The notes: generated from the sequence alone by a model not told the origin. A stretch of 64,000 bases of DNA from Spirochaetia bacterium (GCA_965198005.1 CBDAOI010000001.1:192001-256000); one strand, 5' to 3'. Counted from the first letter of the stretch, positions 2,192 to 57,813 are shown. Made by a program: numbers and translations.

Positions 2192-2200
2192 GGGGGGGGG
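2192..2200 (+). repeat. poly-G tract (G9) in SBP upstream region
   Basis: direct read. Confidence 0.9.
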
Positions 2201-2341
2201 AGAGGGAGGGAGTAGACGGACGGGATGGGCCAAGCAGCACGCCGGACGGCAGTGCTCGGGCGCCACTAGCGTGGACCGGTGGCAGGGCTGTAGTGCGTAG
2301 TCAAGCATCATCCGTATTCCGTTCAAGTCCCCAACCCCGAT

Positions 2342-2371
2342 ACCATAGCACATCCCCGCCAGAGCGGTCAA
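2342..2371 (-). promoter_or_regulatory. sigma70-like promoter (TTGACC-18-TATGGT, extended -10)
   Basis: lies in a ~165-bp element (2212-2375) repeated at 23716-23880; points toward the SBP. Confidence 0.6.
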
Positions 2372-2475
2372 GCGTTACTTCGTGCTTGACGAGCGGCGCG
2401 TAGGGGCGGACGATTTACCGAGCCGCAATCGGATGAGCGCGGTGATCGGGTTGGAGCAGAGCCGGTCGCTGAGCG

Positions 2476-2612
2476 ATGATCTTGCGGGATGCCCTGCCCC
2501 ACCACGGTCATGATCGTGAGCGGCAGCAACCGGCCGGGGAACGACATCCAGGCGTCGACGCCGCGCTGCAGGAGCATGTCCAGCTTGCCGCCCATGACCT
2601 CGCCCGCGCAGC
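2476..2612 (-). pseudogene. small dppC-like permease fragment
   Basis: GGKLDMLLQRGVDAWMSFPG…TIMTVVGQGIPQ. Confidence 0.75.
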
Positions 2613-2639
2613 CGGCGTGTGGCGACCACGTTGCTCGGC

Positions 2640-3462: not shown

Positions 3463-4425
3463 TCAGCCGGAGCGCTCGGCCTTTTGCAGGGCGCGGCGGG
3501 CGCCTTCGATGGCGCGGGCGCTCATGCCGCCGCTGCCGAGGCCGGCGCCGCCGCCACCGCCCCGCAGCCGGGGGTCGAGCAGGTCGCGCACCGCGTCGCC
3601 GAACATGTTGAGGCAGTACACCACCACCGTGAGCGCCACCCCCGGCCACATCGCCAGGCGCGGCGCCATCTCCATGAACTGGCGCCCCTCGCGGCTCAGC
3701 ATGCCGCCCCAGCTCGGCACCGTGGTCGGCAGCCCGAACCCCAGGAAGCTCAAGGACGCTTCGGCGATGATGATGCCGCCGATCGTGATCGAGAACACGA
3801 CGATGACCGGCGCGGTGATGTTCGGCCACACGTGGCGCCTGAGGATGTGCCAGGGAGCGCTGCCGATCGCGCGCGCGGCCTCGAAGTAGGGGTTCTCCTT
3901 GATCCCGATCACGGCACTGCGGATCACGCGCGAGTTGCCGATGCCGGAAGTGACGCCGAGCACGACGATGATCTGCAGGATGCCCTGGCCGACGATGGTG
4001 ATGATCGTCAGCAGCAGCAACAGGCCGGGGAAGGACATCCAGGCGTCGACGAAGCGCTGCACCAGTATGTCCAGCTTGCCGCCCGCGAAGCCGGCCACGC
4101 CGCCCACCAGCAGCGCCACCACTGTGCTCAGCAGGGTGGCGGCAAAGCCCACCCCGAGCGAGGTGCGGGCGCCGTACACCAGCCGGCTCAACACGTCGCG
4201 GCCGAGCTGGTCGGTGCCCAGCAGGTAGGTGGCCGACGGGTCGCCCAGCCGGTCGACCAAGTGCATCTCGGCGAAGGGGAAGGGAGCCAGGACATCGGCC
4301 AGGATGGCGATCAGCGCCAGCAGCAGGACTACCACCGCGCTCGCCGCCCCCAACGGCCGCTCCCCCACCAGCCGCCGCAGCAGGTCGAGCAGAAAGGGCC
4401 GCGGTTTGGGCTGAGTCGGTCGCAT
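3463..4425 (-). CDS. peptide/nickel ABC permease (DppC/OppC-like)
   Basis: LGTDQLGRD, EAARAIG (EAA loop), EASLSFLGFG, PSWG, GDAVRDLLDPR. Confidence 0.92.
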   Translation of the reverse strand: MRPTQPKPRPFLLDLLRRLVGERPLGAASAVVVLLLALIAILADVLAPFPFAEMHLVDRLGDPSATYLLGTDQLGRDVLSRLVYGARTSLGVGFAATLLSTVVALLVGGVAGFAGGKLDILVQRFVDAWMSFPGLLLLLTIITIVGQGILQIIVVLGVTSGIGNSRVIRSAVIGIKENPYFEAARAIGSAPWHILRRHVWPNITAPVIVVFSITIGGIIIAEASLSFLGFGLPTTVPSWGGMLSREGRQFMEMAPRLAMWPGVALTVVVYCLNMFGDAVRDLLDPRLRGGGGGAGLGSGGMSARAIEGARRALQKAERSG

Positions 4426-4434
4426 GCGCCAGAC

Positions 4435-7723: not shown

Positions 7724-9514
7724 TCAGAACCCCATCTCCCGCTTCAGATCCTGATCGATCCAGAGACGCGAGTAGATCAGAATACGGTCCATGTCGCCGG
7801 GGTCGGCCTCGCCGTTGTAGCCCTTCACCCACGGCCAGAACGCGTTGAACTGTGGCACGCGGGCGCCCCAGATCGGAACGTGCTGACGGTTGAGATAGTC
7901 GGAGGCCTCCCTGGAGAGTCGCTGGCGCTCTTCCAACGTGGTGGCCGCCTGCACGCGCCTGACCATCTCGTCGTAGCCCGGATCGTCGAGTCTGCGGGGC
8001 GGGTCGTTTGTCCAGTATAGGAGCTGACCCGTCGGATTCCATTCGTATCCGGAAGCCCCCATGCGGACGTCGAAGTCCTTCGCGCGGCGCCGAGCCATCA
8101 CTACGGGGCCCTCAAGATACGAGATCGTTACGTCGATGCCGATCTCTCGCCAGCCCGCCGCCAGGAGCTCATTCCAGCCTTGGTCGCCCCACGTTGGTGT
8201 AGAGATTACCTCCATCTCGAAGCGGGTCCCGTCGGCGCCGCGCGGTAAGCCGGCTTCGTCGAGCAGCCTCTCGGCCTCTGCCGGATTGTAGGAATACGCC
8301 GCCTTGAGGTCCGCCGGCCAGTCCTCGTAGCGAGTCATGTAGGGATACAGGGCTCGCCCCAACCACCCCTGTGGCTGGGTGATTGCATGGCCCTTGAAGT
8401 AGGTTTCGCCCCAGCCCTCGATGTCGAGGGCCAACTGCAGAGCGCGGCGCACGCGGACGTCGTCGAAGGGCGGCTTGTTCGGGTTGACGACGGGGGACGT
8501 CTCAGACCGATAGGAGTAGCCCTCGACGACGATGCCAGGGTTGGTGCGTTGCAGGGTCTCCACCTGGTCGATCGACGTAAGCTGTGCGCTTCCCTGGAAG
8601 CCGACGAAATCGACCTTTGCCGAGCGCAAGGCGGCAAGACGCGTCTGGGGCTCGGACATCACCAGTGCGGTGATGGTGTCGACATAGGGCAGCCGGTTCT
8701 GGGGGAACTTCTCGTCGAAGCCCCAGTAGCCGGGAGCCTTGTCCCAGGTGATGGAGCTGCCTTCCACCCAGTCCGTGAGCTCAAAGGGTCCGGTGCCTAC
8801 CAGGTTCTGCCAATCGCCGATATCGACTCCGGTCCCCGCCCGAATCACCTCCGGCGGATAGATGAACAGGACGTTCTGCGTCAGGAGCGTCTTGACCGCG
8901 TCCAGGTTCAGCTCCGCCAGCTTGAAGACGACGCTGTTGCCCTGGGCCGTTACGGAGGTGATGCCGAGGTTGTCCGCGGACGACACGGCGGCGACGCCTT
9001 CCGGCACCTCGGTGAAGCCGCTACCCAACCCGAGGAAGCGGTGGAAGTTGAACTCCACGTCCTTGGCGGTGAGCGCGCGACCGTTCATCGGCGCCTTGTC
9101 ATGCCAGTTCACGCCCTGGCGGATGTGAAAAACGATGGTCGTGGGGTCGGGCTGCTCCCAGCGCTCGGCCAGGCGTCCGACGATGATGTCGTCGGGCAGG
9201 TAGGTGGTGCGGAAGTCGAACTTGTCGCGACTGACGCCCCAGTCACCGATACCGAGCTTCTCCACCACGAGGCCTGCCACGATCGCGGGCGGGTGGCGGT
9301 AGTACGTGTCCACCGTTGGCGGATCCCCGCGTAGCGTGACGGTGAGCGTGCCGCCGTACTCTGGGGCGGTGACCATCTTTCCGGTGGTCGGGTCTGTCAC
9401 CATCGGCTTCTCGGTCGCCGCAGCTGCCCCTTCGCCTTCTCCGCTGGCAAACGTAACGGTAGCCACCAGCGCGAGCGCCAGTGTCAACAAACCGATTTTG
9501 GAAACGTAGTTCAT
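7724..9514 (-). CDS. family 5 ABC solute-binding protein (DppA/OppA-like)
   Basis: signal peptide, APEYGGTL, LAERWE, GTGPF, PFDDVRVRRAL. Confidence 0.92.
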   Translation of the reverse strand: MNYVSKIGLLTLALALVATVTFASGEGEGAAAATEKPMVTDPTTGKMVTAPEYGGTLTVTLRGDPPTVDTYYRHPPAIVAGLVVEKLGIGDWGVSRDKFDFRTTYLPDDIIVGRLAERWEQPDPTTIVFHIRQGVNWHDKAPMNGRALTAKDVEFNFHRFLGLGSGFTEVPEGVAAVSSADNLGITSVTAQGNSVVFKLAELNLDAVKTLLTQNVLFIYPPEVIRAGTGVDIGDWQNLVGTGPFELTDWVEGSSITWDKAPGYWGFDEKFPQNRLPYVDTITALVMSEPQTRLAALRSAKVDFVGFQGSAQLTSIDQVETLQRTNPGIVVEGYSYRSETSPVVNPNKPPFDDVRVRRALQLALDIEGWGETYFKGHAITQPQGWLGRALYPYMTRYEDWPADLKAAYSYNPAEAERLLDEAGLPRGADGTRFEMEVISTPTWGDQGWNELLAAGWREIGIDVTISYLEGPVVMARRRAKDFDVRMGASGYEWNPTGQLLYWTNDPPRRLDDPGYDEMVRRVQAATTLEERQRLSREASDYLNRQHVPIWGARVPQFNAFWPWVKGYNGEADPGDMDRILIYSRLWIDQDLKREMGF

Positions 9515-9926
9515 GATGAGAACCTCCGATTCTCGACTCTCGTTCGAGAGCATGTACTGATCCTGGTGCCGGCCCCTCGTCTGCTCTCGTGGCCTGTCTG
9601 CCGCTTTGTGTTGTCTGCGGCGCAGGCGGTTCCAACGAGGACGACAACGTAACTTCGCGATGACCCCGGGGGGCGATCAGGCGCAACCGTTGATCGCGTC
9701 CCGCGGTGGATTACGGCTTCACCGGCACCTCCTGTATGCGTACCGGTCAGACGCAGGTCGACGCCGGTCGGCGTGAACGGGTCTGGCCGGTGGATTGTTC
9801 TGCGGTCCGGCAACGCCGGGGGTGATTGCTGACTGAGGACCAAGCAGGGCGGTGGCCGACGCGCGGGGGCGTCGGTTCACGGTGCCGGGCGCTCGGAGTG
9901 TGACGTGACAGTTGGAGCTTACTGCC

Positions 9927-10050
9927 GGCCCTGGTGCCTCTGGCGGTTGCAGCACCAGGCGCGCCCACTCGCCGGCGTTCCCTGGGCTGCAAGCCCGTCC
10001 GCCTGCCGCGCTCCCGAATCGACCGCTTCGAGGGGCGACTCGAGTATTGG
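9927..10050 (+). pseudogene. N-terminal fragment of a Uma2-like endonuclease; duplicated at ~23914-24060
   Basis: GCKPVRLPRSRIDRFEGRLEYW; near-identical DNA at both sites. Confidence 0.55.
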
Positions 10051-10226
10051 CACGGCTGCGGTCGCCGGCAAGGGCGCGGGCGGTCCGCATGCCGGTTCGG
10101 CGATGGACCGAGCCGGCGCCACGGATAACTACGGCGGTGGTGAAGGCGACGGCGTGCGCGCTTTCGCGTACGGGGCGATCAGCCGGAGCGGTTAGTTGTT
10201 TCTCGGTTCGAAAATGTTGTGTGTGT
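10050..10226 (-). repeat. leader element 'L1', paralogous to ~57625-57800
   Basis: ggtccgcatgccggt…gatcagccggagcggttagttgttt…cggttcgaaaa shared. Confidence 0.8.
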
Positions 10227-10237
10227 GGGGGGGGGGG
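10227..10237 (+). repeat. poly-G tract (G11)
   Basis: direct read. Confidence 0.9.
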
Positions 10238-10453
10238 ACTCCTCACCATAAGCAAGCGCGCCGCGAGCTGATTTTCAGCAAATCTCGGCGAGCGGCTGTC
10301 AGGGGAACAGAGTGTCATAAGCGTTGACGTGTTATAAGTCACTCAAGCCCTCCGCAGGTGAGGCACAGCCATACCCAGATGTAGTCGCGATGTCGCGATT
10401 GACTGCATCCCACCCTATCATAACCTCCGCTCCCGTGGACGTCAACCACGAAT
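10238..10453 (-). repeat. conserved non-coding promoter/leader element 'R2' (copy at ~35753-35961)
   Basis: about 210 bp of high identity with no convincing ORF. Confidence 0.85.
10417..10445 (-). promoter_or_regulatory. sigma70-like promoter TTGACG-17-TATGAT
   Basis: near-consensus boxes with ideal spacing; conserved in the second copy. Confidence 0.7.
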
Positions 10454-10517: not shown

Positions 10518-10533
10518 GGGGGGGGGGGGGGGG
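10518..10533 (+). repeat. poly-G tract (G16)
   Basis: direct read. Confidence 0.9.
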
Positions 10534-10635: not shown

Positions 10636-10664
10636 AGTATACCACCTCTGCGGCAACCAATCAA
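10636..10664 (-). promoter_or_regulatory. sigma70-like promoter TTGATT-17-TATACT (extended -10)
   Basis: near consensus; the downstream AACCGGTGGCAGCGCTGAGTAG is shared with 47031. Confidence 0.6.
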
Positions 10665-11333: not shown

Positions 11334-12375
11334 GTGCTCACCGGGGCGCGCATCCGTGAAGACCTGCAGGGCGTCGACGGGCTGCGCTGGATCACGACCT
11401 TGCGCGTGCCTACCATCCGCAAGCTGATTGCGAACGGTCAGGTGGCGCAGTCGATGTTCGACCAGCGTGATCTGGCCGAGATCAGCTCACCCGACTTCCC
11501 CCGCGAGCGGCTGATCGTGTGCCGCAACCCGGTGTTGGCTGACCAACGCCACCGCAAGCGGCTGGAGTTGCTGGCCGCCACCGAGGACAAGCTGGCCCCC
11601 ATCGTGAGAGCCACGCAGCGTGCCAAAGATCCGCTGCGCGGCGCCGCTGAGATCGGTATGCGGGTGGGCAAGGTGATCAATCAGCACAAGGTGAGCAAGC
11701 ATTTCATCACCACGATCACTGAGGACTCATTCACCTATGAACGTGACCTCGAGAAGATCGCTGCCGAAGAAGAACTGGACGGGCTGTACATCGTCCGCTC
11801 CAACGTCGAGCCGGAGTTGTTCGACGCCGATCAGACGGTACGCGCGTACAAGGACCTGTCCAAGGTAGAGCGCGCCTTCCGCAGTATGAAGACGGTGGAT
11901 CTGAAGGTGCGCCCGATCTACCACCGGCGCGCTGACCGGGTACGGGCGCACGTACTGTTGTGCATGCTGGCCTACTACGTGGAGTGGCACATGCGCAGCG
12001 AGTTGGCGCCGGTGCTGTTCGATGACCACGATCCGGAGGCGGCACAGCAGCAACGGTCATCGGTGGTGCGACCGGCACAGCGGTCGCCCCGGCGGCACAG
12101 AAGAAGGCGGCCAGGAAGCGCACCGCTGACGATCTGCCGGTGCACAGTTTTCGCAGCCTGATGAACGACTTGGGGACTCTGACGGTCAACAAGATGCAAC
12201 TTGCCAAGGCAGGGAGCACGTTCTTGCTGCCGACGCAGCCGACACCGGTGCAGCAGCGCTGCTTCGAGCTACTGGGGGTATCGCCCCGGATGTAGCCACG
12301 CACGGCACATGCCATTTTGAGCGTAACTATATGACCCCTCGTGACTTACCAAGCATTTGGCTCTGGAACTTCGGG
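11334..12375 (+). mobile_element. IS1634-family transposase remnant (5'-truncated, frameshift near 12090) with right end
   Basis: RLIVCRNP…LDGLYIVRSN…YKDLSKVERAFRSMKTVDLKVRPIYH…VRAHVLLCMLAYY; ends …GGAACTTCGGG. Confidence 0.8.
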
Positions 12376-23701: not shown

Positions 23702-23716
23702 GGGGGGGGGGGGGGG
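23702..23716 (+). repeat. poly-G tract (G15)
   Basis: direct read. Confidence 0.9.
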
Positions 23717-25816: not shown

Positions 25817-25839
25817 GGGGGGGGGGGGGGGGGGGGGGG
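25817..25839 (+). repeat. poly-G tract (G23)
   Basis: direct read. Confidence 0.9.
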
Positions 25840-30740: not shown

Positions 30741-30749
30741 GCGGAATCA

Positions 30750-30875: not shown

Positions 30876-30879
30876 ACCG

Positions 30880-31690: not shown

Positions 31691-31719
31691 AACATCTGTT
31701 CCATGATGACCGCGCCGGT

Positions 31720-31982: not shown

Positions 31983-32064
31983 GGCTATCCTCCATTCCAC
32001 CATAGCATACCACACAACGCTACGAGGTCGCCTTCCACCAGGGACTCCATCAGCTTGTTCGCGG

Positions 32065-33645: not shown

Positions 33646-35436
33646 TCAGAATCCCATCTCCCGCTTCAGATCCTGGTCGACCCAGACGTAGGCGAGCCAC
33701 GTTTTGTGCGCATTCAGGCCGAGATCGGTCTCCCCGGCATAGCCCTTGATCCACGGCTGGCTGGCACCGAACAGGGGCGCCAGTGGCCCCCTGATCACCC
33801 ACAGCTGCTCAGCCACGCGCAGGTCGGCCTTCCGCGCCCACTCCTTCTGCTCTTCTCTCGTGGTAGCGGCCAGCGCATTCTCGAAGTACTCGTCGAACAC
33901 CGCGTCGCTGACGTTTTGAGGGCGCCATCCGTTTTGCGACCAATATGCAGCGATCGGGCCCGTCGGCGTGCCATACTCGGCAGCCCAAACCTCGGAATGC
34001 AAGTCGATGAATTGTTGCCCCCGGCCCATGATGCCCCATTCGGCGCGGGGTACGATCTGAATCTCCACGTCGATGCCAATCTGCCTGAGATAATCCATCG
34101 CAATCTGGTAGTAGCCGAGGTCGACGAACTCGTACTTCTGCAAGATGACGCTCATGCGCTTGCCATCTGCGCCGCGTGGATAGCCGGCCTCATCCAGCAG
34201 CTTCTCGGCCGCCTCCGGGTCATACCGATACCACTGCTTGACCTCGTCGGGCCACTCCTCGGCCGGCGTGAAATACCCAACCACGCTCTTGCCAATTGGG
34301 CCGACCAGGCTCACATCGCCCCAACCCTGCATGTAGTTCTCGGCGATGAACTCGACGTCGACAGCCATGTTGAGGGCCCGGCGCACGCGGATATCGCTCC
34401 AGGGCTCTTTCTGGTTGTTGAAACTGAACCCCGTTTCCGCGCGAAAGGAAAACGGGTGCAGCACCAAGTCGGGATTGGTCTTCTGCAGATTGACCGCCTG
34501 ATCGATACTGGTGAGATGTGAGAGGAAAGCGAACGCCAAAATATCCCCCTGGCCCGAGCGCATCAGCGAAAGCCTGGCCGCGGGGTCGTTGACCATCACG
34601 TACTCGACCGTGTCCGCATAGGGTAAGCGGTATTCGGGATACTTCGGGTCGGTGCCCCAGTAATCATTACTCTTGGTGTAGGTCCAGGTGCTGCCTTCCA
34701 CCACGTCGGTCAGCTCATAGGGCCCGGTCCCGACCACGTTGCGCCAGTCTTGAATGTCCCCAAATTGCTCTACCACCTCGCGGGCGATAACGTACGTATG
34801 TTCTCCCACGAGCATGGATCTCAAGGCGACAAGACTCGGCTGGCTCAACTCGAATACCACGGTGGAGTCGTCGGCAGCGGTAATCGAATCGAAGGGGATC
34901 TTCGCGAGGTCGCCGACTCCCGCAATATCCGCGCTCGGCTCACCGCCGCTCAACCCCAGGACCCGCTGCCACGTGTACTCGACATCGTGCGCAGTCAGCC
35001 GGCGACCGTTCATCGGCTCCTTGTCGTGCCAGAAGACATCATCGCGGAGCTTGAACACGTAGGTGAGAGGATCCGGGGTCTCCCAGCTCTCAGCCAAGTG
35101 CCCAGTGATGACCTCGTCGGGCATATACAACGTATCAAAGGCGTACACACTCCGATCGAAGGTCCAGTCCCCAATACCCAGGGTCTCGTTGACCAGCCCG
35201 ATCCAGAACCCGGCGGTGTAGCGGTAATAGGGGTCGATCCCCTCGGGCTTGAGTGCCACGATCGGTTTGATCGTGCCGCCATACTCCGGCGCGGTGACCA
35301 TCTCGCCGGTGCTCGGGTCGAGCACCATCTCCTTCTCGGTGGCGGCGGCGGTGTCGTCTTCGCCGGCGGGGCTGGCGAACGTAACGGTAGCCACCAGCGC
35401 GAGCGCCAGCGGCAGCAACATGAGTCGTGGAGTCAT
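33646..35436 (-). CDS. family 5 ABC solute-binding protein
   Basis: signal peptide, APEYGG, LAESWE, GTGPY, DIRVRRAL. Confidence 0.93.
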   Translation of the reverse strand: MTPRLMLLPLALALVATVTFASPAGEDDTAAATEKEMVLDPSTGEMVTAPEYGGTIKPIVALKPEGIDPYYRYTAGFWIGLVNETLGIGDWTFDRSVYAFDTLYMPDEVITGHLAESWETPDPLTYVFKLRDDVFWHDKEPMNGRRLTAHDVEYTWQRVLGLSGGEPSADIAGVGDLAKIPFDSITAADDSTVVFELSQPSLVALRSMLVGEHTYVIAREVVEQFGDIQDWRNVVGTGPYELTDVVEGSTWTYTKSNDYWGTDPKYPEYRLPYADTVEYVMVNDPAARLSLMRSGQGDILAFAFLSHLTSIDQAVNLQKTNPDLVLHPFSFRAETGFSFNNQKEPWSDIRVRRALNMAVDVEFIAENYMQGWGDVSLVGPIGKSVVGYFTPAEEWPDEVKQWYRYDPEAAEKLLDEAGYPRGADGKRMSVILQKYEFVDLGYYQIAMDYLRQIGIDVEIQIVPRAEWGIMGRGQQFIDLHSEVWAAEYGTPTGPIAAYWSQNGWRPQNVSDAVFDEYFENALAATTREEQKEWARKADLRVAEQLWVIRGPLAPLFGASQPWIKGYAGETDLGLNAHKTWLAYVWVDQDLKREMGF

Positions 35437-35719
35437 AACGTACTCCTCCTCGTTGTTCTCGGGATCGGAACTGCGTCCCGTTGCCCGTGTTCTTTTCTGT
35501 GGCCGGATACTCCGGCTGTTTCAGATGGTGCTGGTGGTCGCCCCACGCCCACGGCTCGGAGCGCAGGGGGCCGGCAAGTCGCCGCGCGGCAGTGTGGCGC
35601 GATGGATGTGGAGGTCGAAGCGAGCCGCCACGCCGTCAGCGTGGCCGGCGTGGAGTGGTGGACGCGGCTCGGTCGGCGGTCAGGAGTTACCGGGTGCTTG
35701 GATACTCGGCCATGCCCCC

Positions 35720-35747
35720 GGGGGGGGGGGGGGGGGGGGGGGGGGGG
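35720..35747 (+). repeat. poly-G tract (G28)
   Basis: direct read. Confidence 0.9.
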
Positions 35748-35924
35748 AGAGGGACTCCTCACCATTAAGCAAGCCCGCCGCGAGCTGATTTTCAGCAATT
35801 CTCGGCGAGCGGCTGTCAGGGGAACAGAGCGTCATAAGCGTTGACGTGTTATAAGTCACTCAAGCCCTCCGCAGGTGAGGCACAGCCATACCCAGATGTA
35901 GCGGCGATTGACTGCATCCACCCC

Positions 35925-35953
35925 ATAATAACCTCCACTCCCGTGAACGTCAA
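35925..35953 (-). promoter_or_regulatory. sigma70-like promoter TTGACG-17-TATTAT in element 'R2' copy 2
   Basis: paralogous to 10417-10445. Confidence 0.7.
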
Positions 35954-36134
35954 CCACGAATCGGCCCAGCCGGCCCAACTGCCGAGGTCCTCTCGAGGCG
36001 GCGCCGACGCTTGGCCGAGCACCGCACGCAGAGCGGCCTCGAGATCGTCGACCATGGCGAGTTCCCGCTCGATCGGGCGAATCACCTCCGCGCGCATCCA
36101 CAGACCGCGGGTGGCACACAGCAGCTTGAAGCGG

Positions 36135-36293
36135 CGATGCCCTGGCCGATGATGGTCATGATCGTCAGCAGCAGCAGCACGATCCGGCGCTGACCGCGCC
36201 CACCGGCCGCTCCCTTATCAGCCGGCGCAGCAGGTCGCGCAGGAACGACTGGCCCTTCGCCCCCTTCGCCCGTGGCCCGGTCACCGCACCCAT
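36135..36293 (-). pseudogene. collapsed dppC remnant
   Basis: KGQSFLRDLLRRLIRERPVGAVS joined to LLLLTIMTIIGQGI. Confidence 0.75.
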
Positions 36294-39218: not shown

Positions 39219-39491
39219 AACGTACTCCTCCTCGTTTTCGGGATCGGGACAGGGTCCCGGTACCCGTGTTTTTCTTGGGCCGGATATTCCGGCTGTTTCA
39301 GATAGTGCTGATGGTCAGCCGACGGCTGGGAGCGGACGGCGACGCGAACGCCGCCTTGCGCGAGCGTGGTGCGATGGGTGTGGAGGTCGAAGGGCGCCGC
39401 CAGGTCGTCAGCGGCGCTGATGGCGAACGGGTGATAGATGCGGCTCGACGAGCGGTCCGGAGTTATCGGTTGCTTGGGTACTCGGTCACGC

Positions 39492-39505
39492 GGGGGGGGG
39501 GGGGG
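39492..39505 (+). repeat. poly-G tract (G14)
   Basis: direct read. Confidence 0.9.
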
Positions 39506-39594
39506 TAGAACGCACCGCCGACGTTAACGTCCGAACACCGGCCCTGATGATGTCATCCCGTCTCATGCACGTCTCTCCCGAACCGAGCAACACG

Positions 39595-39623: not shown

Positions 39624-39717
39624 CCGCCTTTTTCGTGTGACTCGTGTGAGCCGAATCATCGAATCATACTACAGGCTCGCCAGCGTAGCCAACGTCGGGA
39701 CGAGGGTCAACCACGAC

Positions 39718-41880: not shown

Positions 41881-42003
41881 GGTGATCGGACCGCTGCGCG
41901 AGATCTGGTGTGCGGATCTCGGCGTCCGCTCCTGATCGTTCCCGCTTAACCCGCGGCAATCGATTGACATCAGCTTGCGCACGGGTTGATATATGGTGGC
42001 GCA

Positions 42004-42234
42004 ATGGACAAGAGGCGGATATACCACTCCGATCCGGAGATAATGGGAGGAGTGTCCGTGTTTACCGGCACGCGGGTTCCCGTGGACAGTCTGATAGCGC
42101 ACCTGAAGGCAGGGGACTCTCTTGAGCAATTCCTCGAGGGGTTCCCGAGTGTGAGTCGTGAGCAGGCTGAGGGCTTCCTGGAATACGCCCTTTCGGAAGC
42201 GCTCGAGTCCACACCCCGAGAGCACGCGCACTGA
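42004..42234 (+). CDS. DUF433 antitoxin
   Basis: DPEIMGGVSVFTGTRVPVDSLIAHLKAGDSLEQFLEGFPSV. Confidence 0.88.
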   Translation: MDKRRIYHSDPEIMGGVSVFTGTRVPVDSLIAHLKAGDSLEQFLEGFPSVSREQAEGFLEYALSEALESTPREHAH

Positions 42235-42242
42235 TCCGCGTC

Positions 42243-42560
42243 TTGCTGGACGAACACCTGGACTGGCGTCTAGCACGCTTTTTCAACGATGCACACGAGG
42301 TGCGTTCCGTCCGTGGGATGGGCTGGTCGGGGATGCGTAACGGGGAATTGCTGGACGTGGCGGAGCACCTGTTCGACGTGCTCATAACGATGGATCAGAA
42401 CATGCAGCACCAGCAATACTTGCCCCGGTACGATCTGGCCGTGATTCTTCTTACATCAGTGAGCAATCGGCTGAAGGATACCGCGAGGATGGTTCCGTCG
42501 GTCGACAGAGTGATAGCTGCTGGGATCGAGCCGGGGAATCTCTACCTGGTAGTCGATTGA
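42243..42560 (+). CDS. DUF5615 PIN-like toxin
   Basis: LLDEHL…GWSGMRNGELL…FDVLITMDQNMQHQQ; the start may lie a few codons upstream. Confidence 0.85.
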   Translation: MLDEHLDWRLARFFNDAHEVRSVRGMGWSGMRNGELLDVAEHLFDVLITMDQNMQHQQYLPRYDLAVILLTSVSNRLKDTARMVPSVDRVIAAGIEPGNLYLVVD

Positions 42561-44834: not shown

Positions 44835-46619
44835 TTAGAAGCCCATCTCCCGCTTCATATCCTGGTCCACCCACAGGTACATGAGGACGGTGGACCGCTG
44901 CATCGCGCCGAGTTCGCCTTCCCCGTTGTAGCCTTTGAGCCACGGCTGGGTGGCGCCGAACAGGGGAGCGATCGGCCCCCTGATCATCCACAGCTGCTCG
45001 GCGACGCGCAGGCCGGCCTTCCGCACCCACTCCTTCTGCTCCTCTATCGTGGTGGCGGCCAGCGCGTTCTCGTAGTACTCGTCGAACACGGGGTCGTTGT
45101 TGTTCTGGGGGTGCCAAGTGTTTTGCGACCAGTACGACGAGAGCGGGGCCGTGGCACTTTGATACTCGGCGGCCCATACGTCGGTGCGCAGACCGAGGTA
45201 TGTCTGCTCCAGGGACATCTCGATGTGTTCCGCGCGGGTAACGCCCTGGATCTCGACGTCGATGCCGATCTTCCTGAGGTAATCCATGGCGATCTGGTAG
45301 TAGCCGAGGTCGAAGAACTCGTAATGCTGATAGACGGTACTGAAGCGAACGCCGTCGTCGCCGCGCGGATAACCGGCCTCGTCGAGCAACCTCTCCGCCT
45401 CCTCGGGGTCGTACCGATAGTACTGCTTGACCTCGTCGGGCCATTCCTCGAACGGAACCGTATACCCGAGGACCGCTTTGCCAACAGGGCCGACCGGGCT
45501 TGCATCGCCCCAACCCTGCTGGTAGTTCTCGGCGATGGCCTCTTGGTCGATGGCCAGGCTCAAGGCTTGGCGCACGCGGATGTCGCTCCAGGGCTCCTTC
45601 TGGACGTTGAAACCGATCGCCGTTTCCGAACGGTAGGCATACGGGTGCAGCACCAGGTCGGGATTGGTCTTCTGCAGATTGACCGCCGAGTCGACACTGG
45701 TCAGATGGGAGTTGAGCCCGAACCCGATGAAGTCCGCCTGTCCGGAGCGCATCAGTGAGGTGATGGCGGTCGGGTCGTTGACGATGAGGTACTCGACCGT
45801 GTCCGCGTAAGGCAGGCGATAGTCGGGATACTTGGGGTCGAAGCCCCAGTAGTCATCGATCCTGGTGTAGGTCCAGGAGCTGCCCTCCACCACGTCGGTC
45901 AGCTGGTAGGGCCCCGTTCCGGTCACGTTGCGCCAGTCTTGCATGTCCCCGAATTGGTCGACCACCTCGCGGGCGACCACGAACGTATGTAACCCGTAGA
46001 GCATGGTCCTCAGGGCAAGGAGACTGGGCTCGCTCAACTTGAATACCACGGTAAAATCGTCGGTGGCGGTTACCGACTCGAGCGGGATCGTGCCGACTTC
46101 AGACCCCCCGACATCCGGGCTCGGCTCGCCGCCGTCCACACCCCAGACGAGCCGCTGCCAGCTGTACTCGACGTCGTGCGCGGTGAGCTGCCGGCCGTTC
46201 ACCGGCGCCTTGTCGTGCCAGAACACGCCGTCGCGGATCTTGAACACGTAGGTGAGCGGATCCGGGTTCTCCCAGCTCTCGGCCAGTTGTCCGGTGATGG
46301 CCTCATCGGCCAGGAATAGCGTGGTATAGCCGACCACGCTCCGGTCGATCGCCCAGTCGGCGATGCCGAGCTTCTCGTTGACCAGCCCGATCCAGGCTCC
46401 CGCGGTGTAGCGGTAGTAGGGGTCGATTCCCTCGTTCTTGAAGTTCACGACCGCTCTGATCGTGCCGCCATACTCGGGCGCGGTGACCATCTCGCCGGTG
46501 GTCGGGTCGAGCACCATCTCCTTCTCGGCCGCGGCTGCGGTGTCGCTTTCGCCGCTGGCGAACGTAATGGTAGCCACCAGCGCGAGCGCCAGCGGCAGCA
46601 ACATGAGTCTTGGAGTCAT
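44835..46619 (-). CDS. family 5 ABC solute-binding protein
   Basis: full-length paralogue of 33646 and 37434. Confidence 0.93.
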   Translation of the reverse strand: MTPRLMLLPLALALVATITFASGESDTAAAAEKEMVLDPTTGEMVTAPEYGGTIRAVVNFKNEGIDPYYRYTAGAWIGLVNEKLGIADWAIDRSVVGYTTLFLADEAITGQLAESWENPDPLTYVFKIRDGVFWHDKAPVNGRQLTAHDVEYSWQRLVWGVDGGEPSPDVGGSEVGTIPLESVTATDDFTVVFKLSEPSLLALRTMLYGLHTFVVAREVVDQFGDMQDWRNVTGTGPYQLTDVVEGSSWTYTRIDDYWGFDPKYPDYRLPYADTVEYLIVNDPTAITSLMRSGQADFIGFGLNSHLTSVDSAVNLQKTNPDLVLHPYAYRSETAIGFNVQKEPWSDIRVRQALSLAIDQEAIAENYQQGWGDASPVGPVGKAVLGYTVPFEEWPDEVKQYYRYDPEEAERLLDEAGYPRGDDGVRFSTVYQHYEFFDLGYYQIAMDYLRKIGIDVEIQGVTRAEHIEMSLEQTYLGLRTDVWAAEYQSATAPLSSYWSQNTWHPQNNNDPVFDEYYENALAATTIEEQKEWVRKAGLRVAEQLWMIRGPIAPLFGATQPWLKGYNGEGELGAMQRSTVLMYLWVDQDMKREMGF

Positions 46620-46889
46620 AATGTACTCCTCCTCGTTTTCGGGATCGGGACTGCGTCCCGGTACCCGTGTTTTTCTTGGGCCGGATACTCCGGCTGGTTC
46701 ACAAGGTGCTGGTGGCCGCCCCTGGTCGCCCCACGGCTGGGAGCGGACGGCCGGCTGTCGCGTCGTCGCTGAGGGTGACCGGCGGTGCTGGTCCGAAGCT
46801 GCCGGCCGCCGTGCCCACCGGCCTCGTGCGCAGGGGATGCGGCGCGGTCAGCCCGAGCGCTTAGTGCTTGACGTACAAATAGTTGCCGT

Positions 46890-46899
46890 GGGGGGGGGG
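46890..46899 (+). repeat. poly-G tract (G10)
   Basis: direct read. Confidence 0.88.
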
Positions 46900-47140
46900 T
46901 AGCAGGGCGCACCGGCTGCGTCACCGCTCGGAGCTGGTCGGCGTCACCGGCGAGGTTCGAGCCTATCGGTGGGTTGGGCCACCCGCTTCGCGACCCTGCG
47001 GGGCGGCGCCTCGGGCGTCGGTCTTGGCCCAACCGGTGGCAGCGCTGAGTAGTGTCGTCACGCACCATCCGCAGGGTAACACCCGCGTGGCATGCAGTCA
47101 AATGGCTGGAATTCCCCATCCGTCCGAGTCTCAAGTCGCT

Positions 47141-51982: not shown

Positions 51983-53078
51983 CTAAAAGCCCATCTCCCG
52001 CTTCAGGTCCTGGTCCACCCAGAGGTACATGAAGACGGTGCTTCGCTGCATCGCGCCGAGATCGCCTTCCCGGTTGTAGCCCTTGATCCACGGCTGGGTA
52101 ACACCGAACAGGGGAGCAATCGGCCCCCTGATCATCCACAGCTGCTCGGCGACGCGCAAGTCGGCCTTCCGCACCCACTCCTTCTGCTCCTCTATCGTGG
52201 TGGCGGTCAGCACGTTCTCGTAGTACTCGTCGAACACGAGGTCGTTGTTGTCCGAGGGACGCCAGCTATTCTTCGACCAGTATGACGTAAGCGGCGAATA
52301 GGGACTGTTATACTCGGCGGCCCATACGTCGCTCCGCAGACCGAGGTAGGTCTGCTCCGCGGAATTCTGGAGGTGTTCCGCGCGGGCAACTTCCTGGATC
52401 TCGACGTCGATGCCGATCTGCCACAAGGTCGGGGTTGGTCTTCCGAAGATTTGCCGCCGCATCGACACTGGTGAGATGTGAGTTGAGCCCGAACCCAATC
52501 CAGTCCGCCTGTCCCGAGCGCATCAGTGAGGTGATGGCTGTCGGGTCGTTGACGATGATGTACTCGACGGTGTCCGCGTAGGGCAGGCGATTGTCGGGAT
52601 ACTTCGGGTCGAAGCCCCAGTAATCATCGATCCTGGTGTAGGTCCAGGAGCTGCCCTCCACCACGTCGGTCAGCTGGTAGGGCCCCGTTCCGGTCACGTT
52701 GCGCCAGTCTTGGATGTCCCCGAATTGCTCGACCACCTCGCGGGCGACGATGTACCCATGGTCATCCACAAGTATGCGGTTCAGGGCGGTGAGAGCGGGC
52801 TCTTTCAGCTTGAATACCACCGTAGAATCGTCGGTAGCGGTAACCGACTCCCACTGTATTTTGCAGATATCAGATATCAAAGGCCCCCGTGCATTCCGGG
52901 CTCGACTCGCCGCCGTCCACCCCGAAGAGGAGCCGCTGCCCGCTGTAGGCGACATCGTGCGCGGTCAGCTGCCGGCCGTTCACCGGCGCCTTGTCGTGCC
53001 AGAAGACGCCGTCGCGGATCCTGAACACGTAGGTGAGCGGATCCGGGTCCTCCCAGCTCTCGGCCAGTTGTCCGGTGC
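51983..53078 (-). pseudogene. SBP with 5' and internal deletions
   Basis: TGQLAESWEDPDP…KTNPDLV|QIGIDVEIQ…DQDLKREMGF. Confidence 0.85.
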
Positions 53079-53252
53079 CCACGGCTCGGCGCGGACGGCG
53101 CCGCCAACGCCGCCTCGGGCGCGCGTGGTGCGATGGGTGTGGATGTCGAAGGGAGGCGCTACGTCGGCGGCGGCGCTAATGGCGAACGAGCGATAGATGC
53201 GGCTCGATGATCGCTCCGGAGTTGCCGGGCACTTGGATACTCGGTCACGCCC

Positions 53253-53265
53253 GGGGGGGGGGGGG
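53253..53265 (+). repeat. poly-G tract (G13)
   Basis: direct read. Confidence 0.9.
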
Positions 53266-53507
53266 TACAGGGCATAAGCGCTAACTTAACTTCGTTCGCG
53301 CACACGCACGAGGCGGCGTGGCGGTGGCGAAAGCTGAAGGATGCCGGCGCCGCGGTGATCGAGCGCGAAGACATCTGGGGCCGACCCGTCGCACCTCGCC
53401 TTGCTGAGTGGGGTGCACGGCCGCCCGCGCGCTGGCGCGTGGCCACCTCCGTGGTCCCAGACGCGCATGCCCGACTGGGAGCCGCATGCAGCCGCAGCGG
53501 GGCTGTC

Positions 53508-54413: not shown

Positions 54414-55365
54414 ACCGCACGCTCGGGTCTAAATAAGGATAGATCAGGTCTATTATTAGATTGATCCCCATAACCGCGGTGGCGAAAAACAGGTTTATTC
54501 CGGAGACCACCGGGTAGTCTCTCGCGTTGAGTGCATCTAGCATGAGACGCCCCAACCCCGGCAGGTTAAATATGTTCTCCATGATAACGGAGCCACCTAC
54601 CAGGATGGGCAACTGCATGCCGATCAGGGTAACTACCGGGATGAGCGCATTTTTGACGGCATGTCTCACAATAACTACCCTCTCCTTGAGACCCTTGGAC
54701 CAGGCCGTCCTGATGTAGTCCTGCCGGAGCACCTCCAGCATCATGGTGCGCGTCATCCGCATTGTGGCTGCAGCCGAGGCCGTCCCCAGAATCAGGCTGG
54801 GAATGATGAACATGCTGAGATTCCCCAGTGGGTCTCCCGTGAAAGAAACCAGCTCCATCGGTGGCGACCAGCCCCACCAGATTGCCGGGTAGATCATGAC
54901 CATCAGGGCCAGCCAGAAGTTAGGCGTTGCCAAGCCGATGATGGCGAAGGAGCGCCCCAGGTAGTCAGGGGCGGTATCCTGACGAATCGCCGAGTAGATG
55001 CCGACGGGCAGGGCTATCAAGAGGCCGATCACCACCGCCAGGAGGCCCAGCTCAATGGTTACCGGCAATCTATCTAATATCCTCTCCTCTATCGCATAAC
55101 CGCCAAACAGTGATTCGCCAAGGGTGCCGTGCAGGAAGATGCCTCCTAACCAGCGTCCATACTGTACGTAAACAGGCATGTCTAATCCCAGCACACGCCT
55201 AACAGATTCACGGTCAATCCCTCCGCCGACAAGCCCTTCCATCCTTATCTCCATTACGTTTATTACGTCGCCGGGGATGAAGCGGACCGAGAGAAAGACC
55301 AGGATGCTCAGGATGAACAGGGTGGGGATGATCAGCAACAACCGCCTGATGATATAGGCTTTCAC
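54406..55365 (-). CDS. DppB/OppB-like permease (AT-richer module)
   Basis: paralogue of 20049-21047. Confidence 0.92.
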   Translation of the reverse strand: MKAYIIRRLLLIIPTLFILSILVFLSVRFIPGDVINVMEIRMEGLVGGGIDRESVRRVLGLDMPVYVQYGRWLGGIFLHGTLGESLFGGYAIEERILDRLPVTIELGLLAVVIGLLIALPVGIYSAIRQDTAPDYLGRSFAIIGLATPNFWLALMVMIYPAIWWGWSPPMELVSFTGDPLGNLSMFIIPSLILGTASAAATMRMTRTMMLEVLRQDYIRTAWSKGLKERVVIVRHAVKNALIPVVTLIGMQLPILVGGSVIMENIFNLPGLGRLMLDALNARDYPVVSGINLFFATAVMGINLIIDLIYPYLDPSVRYE

Positions 55366-55460
55366 GGGGACACCTTATTCAATGAGTGAGGGGCTGGGAG
55401 GCGCGCTCCGAACGCAACCTCCCAGCCCCCTTTCCACGTAGGTCAGAAGGGGTGACCTCC

Positions 55461-57314
55461 CTAGTGACCCATTGCTTCCTTCAGCTCCTGGTCAATCCAA
55501 AGGTGGACGAGGACGTCACGAACGCCCGACTCTTCCAGCATCATTTCACCGTTAAAACCTTTGACCCATGGCTGGTTCGCCTGAAACAGTGGAGCCATAG
55601 GACCCCATATCTGATTGTGCTGCTTTATTAGGAGCATATCATACTCTTTAAATGCCTTGAGCTGCTCCTCATGGGTGGTAGCGGCGAAAAAGGCATCATA
55701 GGCGGCGGTCAGCTCAGGGGTCTCGATTCCGCCCGAGTAATCGCGAAGTAACTGGATTGACCCTCGATAAAAGCCTACCCATATGGATGGTAATATATGT
55801 TGGGCCATGTCGCCAGTGCTCATGTCCCAACGAAGTAGGTCTTCCTGGGGGACATCCTCGGTACGCGCGCCCACACCCCTGCGCTCGAACGCCCAACCTT
55901 GCGTGTCATATATCTCAATCTTTACACCAACGCCAATCTCCTCCCAGTAACCGACAGCTATTTCTCTATAGCCTAAATCTATGATGTCGCGGTGGTCATA
56001 GTCGACCTTGAATCGAACGCCGTCCGCGCCCCGCGGATATCCAGCCTCATCAAGCAGCTTCTCGGCAGCTTCCGGGTCATAGGTATAGTATTGCTTGAGC
56101 TCTTCGGGATAGTCTTCAAATGTGGTGACATATGGCTTGACGGCAATCCCCCCCATAGGTTCCCACCTTGCATAACCGCCGAAGTAGGTATTGTTAATCG
56201 TTTCGAGGTCCAGTGCCATCTGCAATGCGTGGCGCACCCTGATGTCGTCAAACGGCGGCTTGCGAATGTTCAGAGTAAAGGCGTTAAACGACCGCTGGAA
56301 ATATGGCCATATCTCGATTTCGGGGTTCGTCCGCTGGAGGCTCCCTACCACGTCGAGGGAATTTATAGCGGCGCCGCCGCCGGCTTGACTTATTATGTCA
56401 ACCTTACCCGTGCGTAGTGCCGACAGACGTGTTGCTTCTTCGGGCATAAGCAGGGCCCTCATCTTGTCAATATAGGGCAAGCGGTTCTCCGGGTATTTTG
56501 GGTCGTAGCCCCAGTAGTCAGGATTCTTGTCCCAGGTGATAGAGACGCCTTCGACATAGTCCGTCAGTATAAGGGGCCCGGTGCCGACCACGTTCTTCCA
56601 TTCCTCATAGTTGCCGTATTTCTCGATTACCTCGGGGGGTAATATCCACTGCATACCTTCGCCGATGATAACTCTTAGCGCATTGAGGGATGGCTCCGTC
56701 AGCTTGATAACAACCGTATATTTTTCGGTGGCCTCGATCGATTGCCAGGGCAGGTCGATCGCTGCGTAACTCATGAGCGGACGTTCGGTGAAGTCGCCCA
56801 GAGCGTTATTACGCTGATAGGTATATACGACATCATCGGCTGTGAGTTCCCGCCCGTTTACTAAGCGGCTGGCCTCACTGTCTTGATCAAGGGCGTAGTG
56901 AACACCCTGACGGATGTGGAAGATGTAAGTCAGTGGGTCGGGACTTTCCCAGCTTTCAGCCAGACGTCCTACGTAGGCAAACATAGGCAAGTAAGTGTTT
57001 CTAAAGTCACTTACCTTCCTATCTATTCCCCAGTCCGCCCAGGCGAGATGCTCATTAACCGAGCCGATTAGGTGTTGAGCCGCGCCGCCAGCTTGAAACG
57101 GGTCAGTAGTCTCCCCAACAAGTGTGTGGGGATAGGTCAATGTGCCGCCGTATTCTGGCGCGGTCACCGCCTTGCCGGTCGTGGGGTCGGTCACGTACTT
57201 CTTGTCGGCGGCTACTGCCGGCTCCTCTTCAGCGCCGCCGGCCCATAGGCCGGTTGCGGTCAGGACGAGGACCAACGCAACCGCGAAGGTCTTCGTCATT
57301 CGTACAATATTCAT
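55461..57314 (-). CDS. family 5 ABC solute-binding protein (AT-richer body)
   Basis: TATGLWAGGAEE signal region, APEYGG, LAESWE, GTGPL, PFDDIRVRHAL. Confidence 0.92.
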   Translation of the reverse strand: MNIVRMTKTFAVALVLVLTATGLWAGGAEEEPAVAADKKYVTDPTTGKAVTAPEYGGTLTYPHTLVGETTDPFQAGGAAQHLIGSVNEHLAWADWGIDRKVSDFRNTYLPMFAYVGRLAESWESPDPLTYIFHIRQGVHYALDQDSEASRLVNGRELTADDVVYTYQRNNALGDFTERPLMSYAAIDLPWQSIEATEKYTVVIKLTEPSLNALRVIIGEGMQWILPPEVIEKYGNYEEWKNVVGTGPLILTDYVEGVSITWDKNPDYWGYDPKYPENRLPYIDKMRALLMPEEATRLSALRTGKVDIISQAGGGAAINSLDVVGSLQRTNPEIEIWPYFQRSFNAFTLNIRKPPFDDIRVRHALQMALDLETINNTYFGGYARWEPMGGIAVKPYVTTFEDYPEELKQYYTYDPEAAEKLLDEAGYPRGADGVRFKVDYDHRDIIDLGYREIAVGYWEEIGVGVKIEIYDTQGWAFERRGVGARTEDVPQEDLLRWDMSTGDMAQHILPSIWVGFYRGSIQLLRDYSGGIETPELTAAYDAFFAATTHEEQLKAFKEYDMLLIKQHNQIWGPMAPLFQANQPWVKGFNGEMMLEESGVRDVLVHLWIDQELKEAMGH

Positions 57315-57800
57315 AACGAACTCCATAGAGTAGTTTTTTGAGAGTATTGCGTAGCGGATTACCGCTCCCTGGCTACTCTCGGGCCCGCAACGCGGACGGC
57401 CAGTCTGAGTCAGATTCACTAAGCGCGCGGGGTGTGACTCTACGGGCTCACGCCGCGCGCGCGTGCGGTTCTTTGAGTATCATTCGAACCTCCTTCTTCT
57501 CTAGATCTACGTCGGGATCTGCGTTACAACCCCACGCGGGGCGGTGGCCGGCGAAGCAGCGAGTCTGAATGGCCGGCAACGCCGGCGGTGAGTTTTGCCG
57601 GCAGTCAGTCGCAGGCGGGGATCCGGGACGGTTGCGATCGCCGGGAAGGGCGTGGCCGGTCCGCATGCCGGTTTGGCGATGGGCCGAGCCGGCGCAACCG
57701 ATAGCTATAGCTACGGCGGTGGTGAAGGCGCCCGCGTGCGCGGGGTCCCGTACGCGGCGATCAGCCGGAGCGGTTAGTTGTTTGTCGGTTCGAAAAAAGT

Positions 57801-57813
57801 GGGGGGGGGGGGG
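57801..57813 (+). repeat. poly-G tract (G13)
   Basis: direct read. Confidence 0.9.

Follow-up and report, generated by a model that had tools for sequence, protein, structure and literature searches.

The DNA studied here is a 64-kb stretch (the window below; G000:C1:192001-256000) with a G+C content of 64% and no N, taken from a spirochaete genome, G000, of 4.89 Mb in four contigs. Its subject is a set of long poly-G tracts and the leaders in which they lie. A run scan of the plus strand found exactly ten G runs of at least 7 nt, 9-28 nt long, and every tract listed in the initial annotation was recovered at its position and length. C runs of at least 9 nt were absent from the plus strand of the window (the longest being four C7), and the other homopolymers comprised one A7 and one T7. 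The long open reading frames (ORFs) next to the tracts are on the minus strand and encode a solute-binding protein (SBP) of the SBP_bac_5 family (PF00496), followed in each case by two DppB/DppC-like permeases. When an SBP_bac_5 protein was used as tblastn query, all ten tracts were located 10-922 nt upstream of SBP genes or remnants in minus-strand sense, in line with the earlier claim. Because the genes lie on the minus strand, the G runs are poly-C on the sense strand, and are described as such here. According to the tblastn map, six tracts precede five intact SBP genes, those at 10227 and 10518 sharing the gene at 7724-9553, and four (2192, 23702, 25817 and 53253) precede SBP remnants or broken genes. 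No Walker A or true LSGGQ motif of an ATP-binding cassette (ABC) ATPase gene was found in any frame of the window. The tracts and intact SBP genes are listed below, with the families of upstream (U) and downstream (D) flanking modules that are defined further on.

2192..2200, minus strand: poly-C9, modules U5-D5, ahead of an N-terminal SBP remnant (1514-1813)
10227..10237, minus strand: poly-C11, then (AC)n, modules U1-D1, proximal tract of the operon with SBP 7724-9553
10518..10533, minus strand: poly-C16, modules U3-D2, distal second tract of the SBP 7724-9553 operon, followed by the U1 promoter module
23702..23716, minus strand: poly-C15, modules U5-D6, ahead of an SBP gene split over two frames (21545-23346)
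25817..25839, minus strand: poly-C23, 10 nt from an SBP fragment starting at about residue 151, both flanks singletons (deletion scar)
35720..35747, minus strand: poly-C28, modules U1-D4, ahead of intact SBP 33646-35436
39492..39505, minus strand: poly-C14, modules U6-D7, ahead of intact SBP 37434-39218
46890..46899, minus strand: poly-C10, U2-like singleton upstream and D3 leader downstream, ahead of intact SBP 44835-46619
53253..53265, minus strand: poly-C13, D7 leader, ahead of a truncated SBP (51986-53082)
57801..57813, minus strand: poly-C13, modules U2-D1, ahead of intact SBP 55461-57419
33646..35436, minus strand: SBP_bac_5 gene of 596 aa, one of five intact in the window
7724-9553, 37434-39218, 44835-46619 and 55461-57419, minus strand: the other intact SBP_bac_5 genes, each followed by two permease genes

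The (AC)n dinucleotide repeat directly after the poly-C at 10238-10250 forms a compound microsatellite with it, and such a repeat is present at 10 of 87 loci genome-wide.

The window is one part of a large family. In G000, 121 G/C runs of at least 9 nt were counted, as compared with six A/T runs of at least 9 nt. The C strand of 87 of these 121 runs is the sense strand of an SBP gene whose N-terminus starts at most 1 kb downstream, and none has the antisense orientation; one further run lies inside a gene and 33 lie elsewhere, many of the 33 adjoining permease genes, insertion sequence (IS) transposases or repeated elements. The genome-wide survey of runs of at least nine G that the initial annotation had proposed thus bears out an enrichment at SBP leaders. 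It had also named, as a finding that would speak against its claim, that such runs are equally common elsewhere; further runs are indeed common, but in the same SBP-upstream context. Near-full-length SBP5 paralogues numbered 136 in G000 (tblastn), and C runs of at least 8 nt occurred within 1 kb upstream in 69 of 126 near-full-length SBP loci, with another perfect repeat in 16 more. The number of G/C runs dropped about 5-fold per added base between 4 and 8 nt (26294, 5982, 1091, 230, 39) and reached a plateau from 9 nt onwards (26, 22, 12, 6, 5, 6, 9, 6, 3, 8, 4, 6, 2 and so on, up to 3 of 28 nt), where an independent and identically distributed model expects fewer than one run of at least 15 nt in total. 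This drop and the subsequent plateau up to 28 nt indicate that G000, in which G/C runs are otherwise avoided, harbours a second class of them.

The joins at the tracts were checked on Logan contigs of other public runs, which are short-read contigs and not raw reads. Three window tracts were bridged by such contigs, with flanks that were otherwise identical, which excludes an assembler join, the artefact that the initial annotation had considered. The tract at 35720 was 17 letters shorter in run X1 and 15 shorter in run X2, the tract at 39492 had six extra G in one X1 contig, and the tract at 46890 was unchanged in X2, which suggests that tract length is polymorphic between runs. Some of the public runs holding these sequences are labelled sponge metagenome. 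Contigs of the RNA run X19 contained cross-mapping paralogues and were uninformative on transcript ends and levels.

A promoter scan revealed promoter-like sites 100-180 nt upstream of the tract at five of the ten window loci:

2342..2371, minus strand: promoter-like TTGACC-18-TATGGT, module U5
10417..10445, minus strand: promoter-like TTGACG-17-TATGAT, module U1
10636..10664, minus strand: promoter-like TTGATT-17-TATACT, module U3
35925..35953, minus strand: promoter-like TTGACG-17-TATTAT, module U1, 178 nt upstream of the tract
39663..39692, minus strand: promoter-like TTGGCT-18-TATGAT, module U6

The scan gave no site at 23702, 25817, 46890, 53253 and 57801, several of which have weaker matches by eye. 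Between 1500 and 11200, all three sites found were of the tract-upstream type (shuffle mean 1.6), and no promoter-like site in the window scan spanned a tract. A function of the tract as a promoter spacer was ruled out by position, as the predicted -10 elements lie 100-180 nt upstream of it at these five of the ten loci.

Instead of a promoter element, a predicted short reading frame surrounds the tract. At 78 of 87 loci, an open frame that begins with ATG runs into the tract; when only independent upstream units were counted this was the case for 26 of 31, as compared with 6-20 of 31 at control positions. The ATG of this putative leader ORF is located 9-100 nt before the tract, and the other two upstream frames are closed in nearly every locus. 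In module U2 the predicted peptide reads M-K-R-H-D-D-S-Q-R-S-D-R-L-A-V-T-Q-P-V-H-H-T, then prolines, and by eye the U2 copies differ from each other by in-frame 12- and 21-nt indels and many third-position changes. Since the tract sits in the leader ORF, its length would set the reading frame. The earlier proposal that tract length may tune expression can be retained in this form.

Downstream of the tract the three frames are treated very differently. The density of stop triplets has its maximum 20-40 nt past the tract (0.066 vs 0.004-0.028 elsewhere), and two of the three frames are shut within 60 nt after it in 18 of 29 leader units, as compared with 2-8 of 29 in controls. In the D1 copies one frame stays open for 177-535 nt past the motif in 35 of 35. 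Frame constraint was studied in 17 leaders of D3/D4/D7 type from five genomes, comprising 14 from relatives and those of window operons B, C and D. In 16 of the 17, the +1 frame relative to the SBP ATG has no stop from the repeat to the gene (243-340 nt), and in all 17 it ends in a TGA overlapping that ATG (ATGA or TGATG); the other two frames hold conserved stops just past the repeat, followed by additional ones. Measured from the conserved GGTAA stop motif, the ATG lay at a distance of 243, 246, 252, 255, 261 or 279 nt, a multiple of 3 in 14 of 15 leaders, and the sole other distance (256, L072) belongs to the only leader with a stop in the +1 frame. In the window, the following frames were assigned:

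35433..35798, minus strand: leader ORF of 121 aa, C28 read as poly-Pro; spans the leader, its TGA overlapping the SBP ATG; in frame and predicted 'ON' as assembled
39486..39566 (approximate), minus strand: short leader ORF with a Shine-Dalgarno-like GGGAGAG and an ATG 61 nt ahead of the tract; ends 6 nt past C14, predicted 'OFF' as assembled
46616..47068, minus strand: open frame through C10 and the D3 leader, TGA overlapping the SBP ATG
9719..10342, minus strand: open frame of 207 aa through C11 and the D1 leader, ending about 200 nt before the SBP start

The RNA past the tract has a composition typical of Rho-loading regions. On the sense strand, the segment from +40 to +200 past the tract contained 0.39-0.46 C and 0.28-0.31 G, and the first 40 nt 0.31 C and 0.23 G. 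Over about 200 nt past the tract the skew was +0.13 to +0.23 vs approximately 0 elsewhere. Most leader families showed this C-rich, G-poor bias; it was absent from D2 and D14, short spacers that precede a second promoter. For the tract itself, the predicted unpaired probability was 0.68 vs 0.39 and 0.43 in the flanks. The leader thus includes a C-rich, G-poor and, by prediction, unstructured stretch of about 80 nt or more, as is used to recognize Rho attenuators. Rho is encoded in G000, by an open frame of 583 aa that matches PF07497 with 117.6 bits, and so are EF-P, MutS and tRNA-Pro(GGG). A simple scan of the leaders found neither an intrinsic-terminator-like site on the sense strand nor, as in attenuation of the his/trp type, an alternative terminator/antiterminator hairpin with a U tract. 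No leader matched Rfam at the gathering threshold or at E <= 0.5; only the group II intron of the window reached threshold. A hairpin between the tract and G runs was predicted only in some modules (U3, U5, U7).

The comparison with relatives showed that the position of the repeat is kept while its unit changes. Of 12 further genomes from the same taxonomic family, 11 contained a C12 pattern, which was also seen in some other families of the order. In four genomes of the same genus (G001, G005, G006, G007), homologues of the D4/D7 leaders carry perfect tandem 10-nt repeats at the poly-C position. Their sense units are C-rich, e.g. TCCTGCTCCG, with 5.2, 7.5 and 20.4 copies in three loci (TRF). 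The leader ORF of these relatives, which has a strong Shine-Dalgarno sequence (GGGAGGAGGA), runs through the repeat; it reaches the SBP ATG in L074 and L077 and stops right past the repeat in L075, L078 and L081. L074 and L075 have the same peptide start and different repeat copy numbers. In G000 itself, 16 SBP leaders without a C run of at least 8 nt carry other repeats with 90-100% match, mostly 7- or 8-mers, and in 15 of these 16 loci (about 9 of 10 distinct unit types) the period listed first is not divisible by 3. Among 24 SBP-homologue loci, only five had a C run of at least 7 nt within 1.5 kb upstream, in a screen that is blind to 10-mer repeats.

A similar layout was found ahead of other genes in another genus. 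The one-contig genome G012 has 28 tracts of at least 11 nt, without an SBP5 expansion (1 match at E <= 1e-30). At the 20 of these tracts that were analysed, a TTGACA-type promoter and a Shine-Dalgarno sequence precede a short ORF that reads into C11-C38, and the ATG of a lipoprotein with a lipobox signal peptide lies 12-25 nt past the tract. At G012 locus L001 no start codon follows the tract, which lies in frame within the lipoprotein ORF, between start codon and signal peptide.

Two observations concern SBP homologues in other assemblies. The SBP of L033 (OY761144.1, titled Dehalococcoidia MAG, i.e. a metagenome-assembled genome of another phylum) is 65% identical to the window's; this could reflect transfer among symbionts that live together, or a problem of binning or labelling. 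L024 and L028 (CBDBHR..., 'MAG: bacterium') hold SBP homologues of 63-67% identity, in which an AT-rich leader bears C9-C11 immediately followed by an A run, about 370 nt upstream.

To compare the flanks, all 121 tracts of G000 were oriented as poly-C. Upstream flanks of 79 tracts fell into 12 families (U1-U12) and downstream flanks of 82 into 14 (D1-D14). The flank types of the initial annotation, drawn on the opposite strand, correspond to these families: its right types R2 and R1 are U1 (10227, 35720) and U5 (2192, 23702), and its left types L1, L2 and L3 are D1 (10227, 57801), D4/D7 (35720, 39492, 53253) and D6/D3 (23702, 46890). Their mixing across the tract was seen genome-wide, the tracts marking exactly where upstream families, which bear the promoters, meet downstream families, which comprise leader and SBP; the two are combined combinatorially. 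Thus, the 41 members of D1 are joined to at least eight upstream families, including U1 (9), U2 (15), U4 (3), U5 (2), U6 (2) and U7 (3), and the 19 members of U1 to at least six leader families (D1, D4, D6, D8, D9, D13). Homology of upstream flanks stops at most 2 nt from the tract in 207 of 679 pairs. When the 370 pairs with an abutting upstream match were considered, 127 shared the downstream flank too and 214 were without any downstream match. Among the 18 copies of U1, identity is 95% in the 150 nt leading up to the tract, as compared with 63% immediately past it and 65% within the SBP genes, and U1 has thus been spread or homogenised over anciently diverged operons, with the border at the tract. 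Identity profiles computed across the tract without gaps gave no information, because small indels blurred them. As the nearest same-genus members are only 67-81% identical at this locus, no recent swap is datable. One upstream module is amplified in the window:

57995..58402, minus strand: tandem U2 array, 3.3 copies of a 126-nt unit (promoter-like TTGACA and the start of a leader peptide), the tract at 57801 being joined to the last copy alone

Part of the mixing has a simple origin. The right end of an IS4-like element makes up modules U4 and U7; a complete copy of this element (1639 bp, 15-bp terminal inverted repeats) is present at G000:C4:2039868-2041506 with C10 on both sides, so that the tract is older than the insertion. 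All 11 right ends of this element in G000 abut a C run of 5-18 nt, and by eye the right end bears an outward-facing TTGACC-17-TACGGT motif. These data suggest that the IS4-like element targets poly-C tracts and donates an outward promoter. The upstream flank of the tract at 53253 likewise resembles the terminal repeat of this element (14/15 by eye, about 53274-53287). Deletions end at tracts as well: at 25817 the tract is joined to SBP residue ~151, and D5 leaders are the distal part of D1-type leaders. The 'promoter reassignment' of the initial annotation is correct in that upstream modules mix, but a programmed function was not supported; part of the mixing results from IS insertion into the tract and from deletions ending there. 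In the same way, the tracts are recombination hubs in the descriptive sense of breakpoints and IS targets, and a G-quadruplex (G4) mechanism for this was not supported.

Other mobile elements and rearranged genes are frequent in this region of the window:

12743-14552, minus strand: group II intron, with an RVT_1 reverse transcriptase ORF and an Rfam D1-D4-6 match of 169.5 bits
15214-16596, minus strand: IS110-family transposase
11334-12161, plus strand: DDE_Tnp_1 fragment
62001-62813, plus strand: YhgA-like (PF04754) transposase
3463-4425, 24161-24985, 29936-30916, 36082-36290, 41107-42276 and 60341-61507: duplicated, truncated or frame-shifted DppC-like permeases between operons
2-775, plus strand: AbiEii-type nucleotidyltransferase toxin domain
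27222-28628, plus strand: ATPase_2/DUF234
30747-32015, minus strand: Schlafen AlbA_2

The last three lie between transporter operons, and the scattered DppC-like copies indicate frequent rearrangement. With the group II intron in the window, the tracts were also considered as scars of retro-duplication or non-templated tailing; this idea was dropped as improbable, given that the full IS copy is flanked by C10 and the 10-mers of the relatives are templated.

The observed anatomy of the leaders, their frame constraints, the mixing of modules and the length differences between data sets are, in our opinion, best accounted for by a repeat-driven phase switch of the leader ORF that would act via Rho polarity and/or translational coupling, the repeat being in addition a breakpoint for module exchange and IS insertion. 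We propose this with moderate confidence. In this model, the poly-C would be a hypermutable simple sequence repeat (SSR) in the transcribed 5' leader of an SBP_bac_5-permease-permease operon, of which there are about 87 such leaders. Transcription would start from a sigma-70-like promoter 100-250 nt upstream of the tract, and translation of the leader ORF, beginning 9-100 nt before the tract, would enter it and read it as CCC, i.e. proline. Past the tract, two frames would run into the conserved stops, whereas the third would remain open across the approximately 200-nt C-rich, G-poor and predicted largely unpaired stretch, in D3/D4/D7 leaders as far as the stop overlapping the SBP start codon. 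Length changes by slipped-strand mispairing would set the frame. In frame, ribosomes would cover the C-rich leader so that Rho could not load, and would reach the SBP start (operon ON); out of frame, translation would stop early and Rho would load on the naked C-rich RNA (operon OFF or low). Each transporter operon would thereby switch stochastically. The repeat could also serve as the site at which promoter/leader-ORF modules are exchanged, deletions end and the IS4-like element inserts, because it is the only sequence common to unrelated leaders and slippage can restore any frame.

Several observations weigh against this interpretation. No codon periodicity was seen in the D1 leaders, nor did their gaps come in multiples of 3, although the alignment was poor (1093 columns). 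Their open frame ends about 10-190 nt (in most cases 30-170 nt) before the SBP match, and direct translational coupling can therefore not hold in D1. The open frame exceeds that of shuffled sequences only moderately (0.80 vs 0.62 of leader length), and C-rich composition by itself lowers the frequency of stops. Tract length modulo 3 is uniform (30/32/25), which fits switching and equally well irrelevance of the length. The SBP genes have a strong Shine-Dalgarno sequence of their own (GAGGAGGAG), and that of the U2/U3 leader ORFs in G000 is weak by eye. As the loci are paralogues, the counts, including 87:0, do not represent independent events. Homopolymer lengths are error-prone in every technology, which makes frame calls for single loci and the difference of 28 vs 11/13 soft, and the length differences were seen between data sets only, so strain mixture or technical error may contribute.

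An alternative, which we regard as unlikely, is a deterministic attenuator in which the poly-C would be a block of proline codons and/or an ideal site for Rho loading, and poly-Pro stalling (dependent on prolyl-tRNA or EF-P) would mask or expose the C-rich Rho utilization (rut) region, with the transporters sensing amino-acid supply and tract length being incidental. The leader ORF reading into the tract, the C-rich, G-poor and predicted largely unpaired leader, the genes for Rho, EF-P and tRNA-Pro(GGG) and the peptide-type nature of the transporter operons would all suit it. Polyproline stalling together with rut sites leads to Rho termination in E. coli (PMC5021804), and Rho attenuators controlled by an upstream ORF (uORF) are established for tnaC, speFL and CruR (PMC12360218). 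An attenuator would, however, need neither conserved stops in two frames nor indels that preserve the third, the periods seen among the repeats (1, 7, 8 and 10 nt) are indicative of frame shifting, and a sense-strand terminator/antiterminator hairpin was not found in the leaders scanned. Because the 10-nt repeats that take the place of poly-C in the relatives do not encode runs of proline, and because the stops are frame-specific, stalling on proline fits the data less well than the phase switch.

It is quite unlikely that the tracts are a neutral by-product, i.e. that C-rich repeats slip in non-essential leader DNA of a duplicating and decaying family, fragile and without regulatory role. This would agree with the many remnants among tract-linked genes (4 of the 10 window tracts), the uniform length modulo 3, the IS insertion and deletions at tracts and the missing codon periodicity of D1. 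It would not explain why strand and position are fixed to a leader ORF across unalignable families, and even in another genus with other genes, why the repeat stays at the same site while its unit type changes, or why stops are conserved past the repeat while the third frame is stop-free and, in 14 of 15 leaders, indels have a length divisible by 3. Moreover, G/C runs are otherwise strongly avoided in G000.

The view that G-quadruplexes actively promote recombination as at Neisseria pilE, in order to reassign promoters to transporter modules, is very improbable, even though breakpoints of flank homology pile up at the tract and runs of at least 15 G (4 of the 10 window tracts) could in principle fold. 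Orientation follows the gene and not the direction of replication, and the run is C in the RNA; six of the ten window tracts are shorter than 15 nt; relatives have C-rich 10-mers without G runs at the same site; and part of the mixing is IS insertion with duplication of C10. No donor-cassette system and no silent donor cassettes were seen, in an analysis that included no dedicated search for a G4-associated promoter, and the exchanged parts are promoters and leaders, not coding cassettes. For these reasons (poly-C in the RNA strand, only 4 of 10 tracts of at least 15 nt, no G run in relatives) the G-quadruplex/pilE analogy of the initial annotation found no support. Finally, that the tracts are assembly or sequencing errors (two-colour poly-G, polishing) is scarcely credible, since in spite of tracts at contig ends in the fragmented relatives G006 and G008 they show an 87:0 orientation relative to genes, lie within multi-Mb contigs without N and were bridged at three loci in contigs from other runs.

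If the phase switch of the leader ORF is extended to the whole family, one arrives at a more speculative picture, a 'transporter lottery' that we put forward tentatively and regard as possible but doubtful. About 90 peptide-type ABC operons would each have a dedicated leader ORF with its frame set by a hypermutable C-rich repeat (units of 1, 7, 8 or 10 nt), so that Rho-dependent read-through would be switched at every operon independently. The repeat would act as a frame-agnostic adaptor for swapping modules between operons, including an IS-borne outward promoter, and the uptake repertoire of a symbiont population would be continuously reshuffled in its regulation as well as in its on/off state. 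Repeat-driven phase variation is known mainly from pathogens, in structural genes or promoters, whereas the lineage studied here is an uncultured, sponge-associated spirochaete; about 87 leaders of a single transporter family are involved, and a separate leader ORF would leave the protein untouched. If the frame indeed gates Rho termination, this would be a new link between SSR slippage and uORF/Rho attenuation. It would also imply bet-hedging over nutrient-uptake repertoires in a symbiont and provide a concrete reason why repeats mark the borders of exchanged control modules. No reports of these leaders were found in the openly accessible literature.

Several known systems share parts of this arrangement. 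Antigenic variation at pilE of Neisseria depends on a G-quadruplex. Like pilE, the loci studied here have a G-rich element upstream of a variable locus that is associated with recombination; unlike pilE, they showed no silent donor cassettes and no four-tract motif, their functional strand is C-rich and relatives have no G runs at the site. In siaD of Neisseria meningitidis, a poly-C frameshift leads to a premature translation stop and Rho-dependent polarity. The poly-C frameshift, the early stop and Rho termination would be common to both, but the siaD tract is inside the structural gene, whereas here a dedicated leader ORF would be used.

Among SSR contingency loci, frame-shifting poly-G/C tracts in genes of Neisseria and Campylobacter are described in PMC5084427 and PMC6321876. 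As in those loci, a hypermutable repeat with a unit length not divisible by 3 lies near the 5' end of a frame, here predicted to be translated, and many loci are present per genome. Here, in contrast, the repeat belongs to a leader ORF distinct from the structural gene. The latter lies 160-900 nt downstream of the repeat, is intact and is provided with a ribosome-binding site of its own, so that any effect must pass through polarity or coupling; furthermore, about 87 leaders belong to one transporter family, in a sponge-associated symbiont and not in a pathogen. Closer in phylogeny is Treponema pallidum, where the length of poly-G at the tpr and tp0126 promoters affects expression (PMC7864442). 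Both are spirochaetes with G/C homopolymers of variable length upstream of envelope-protein genes. The T. pallidum tract acts on initiation, from a position within the promoter or shortly before the transcription start, whereas the tracts studied here lie 100-180 nt past the predicted -10 element, inside a predicted ORF.

With respect to Rho, two further groups are relevant. In uORF-controlled Rho attenuators (tnaC-rut, speFL, CruR, hisL, mgtL/mgtP; PMC12360218, PMC3641672) a transport or metabolic operon is preceded by a leader ORF and, next to this, a C-rich region on which Rho loads, and the position of the ribosome decides on Rho loading. The predicted leaders resemble this arrangement, except that ribosome position, set by a ligand or a charged tRNA in those attenuators, would here be set by the length of a DNA repeat. 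Control of Rho termination by invertible DNA is described for the fim switch of E. coli and the flgB switch of C. difficile (PMC12360218, PMC7446863). Like these switches, the leaders would undergo a heritable and reversible DNA change that exposes or hides a rut site and thereby causes phase variation; what is achieved by site-specific inversion in the fim and flgB switches would be achieved here by repeat slippage.

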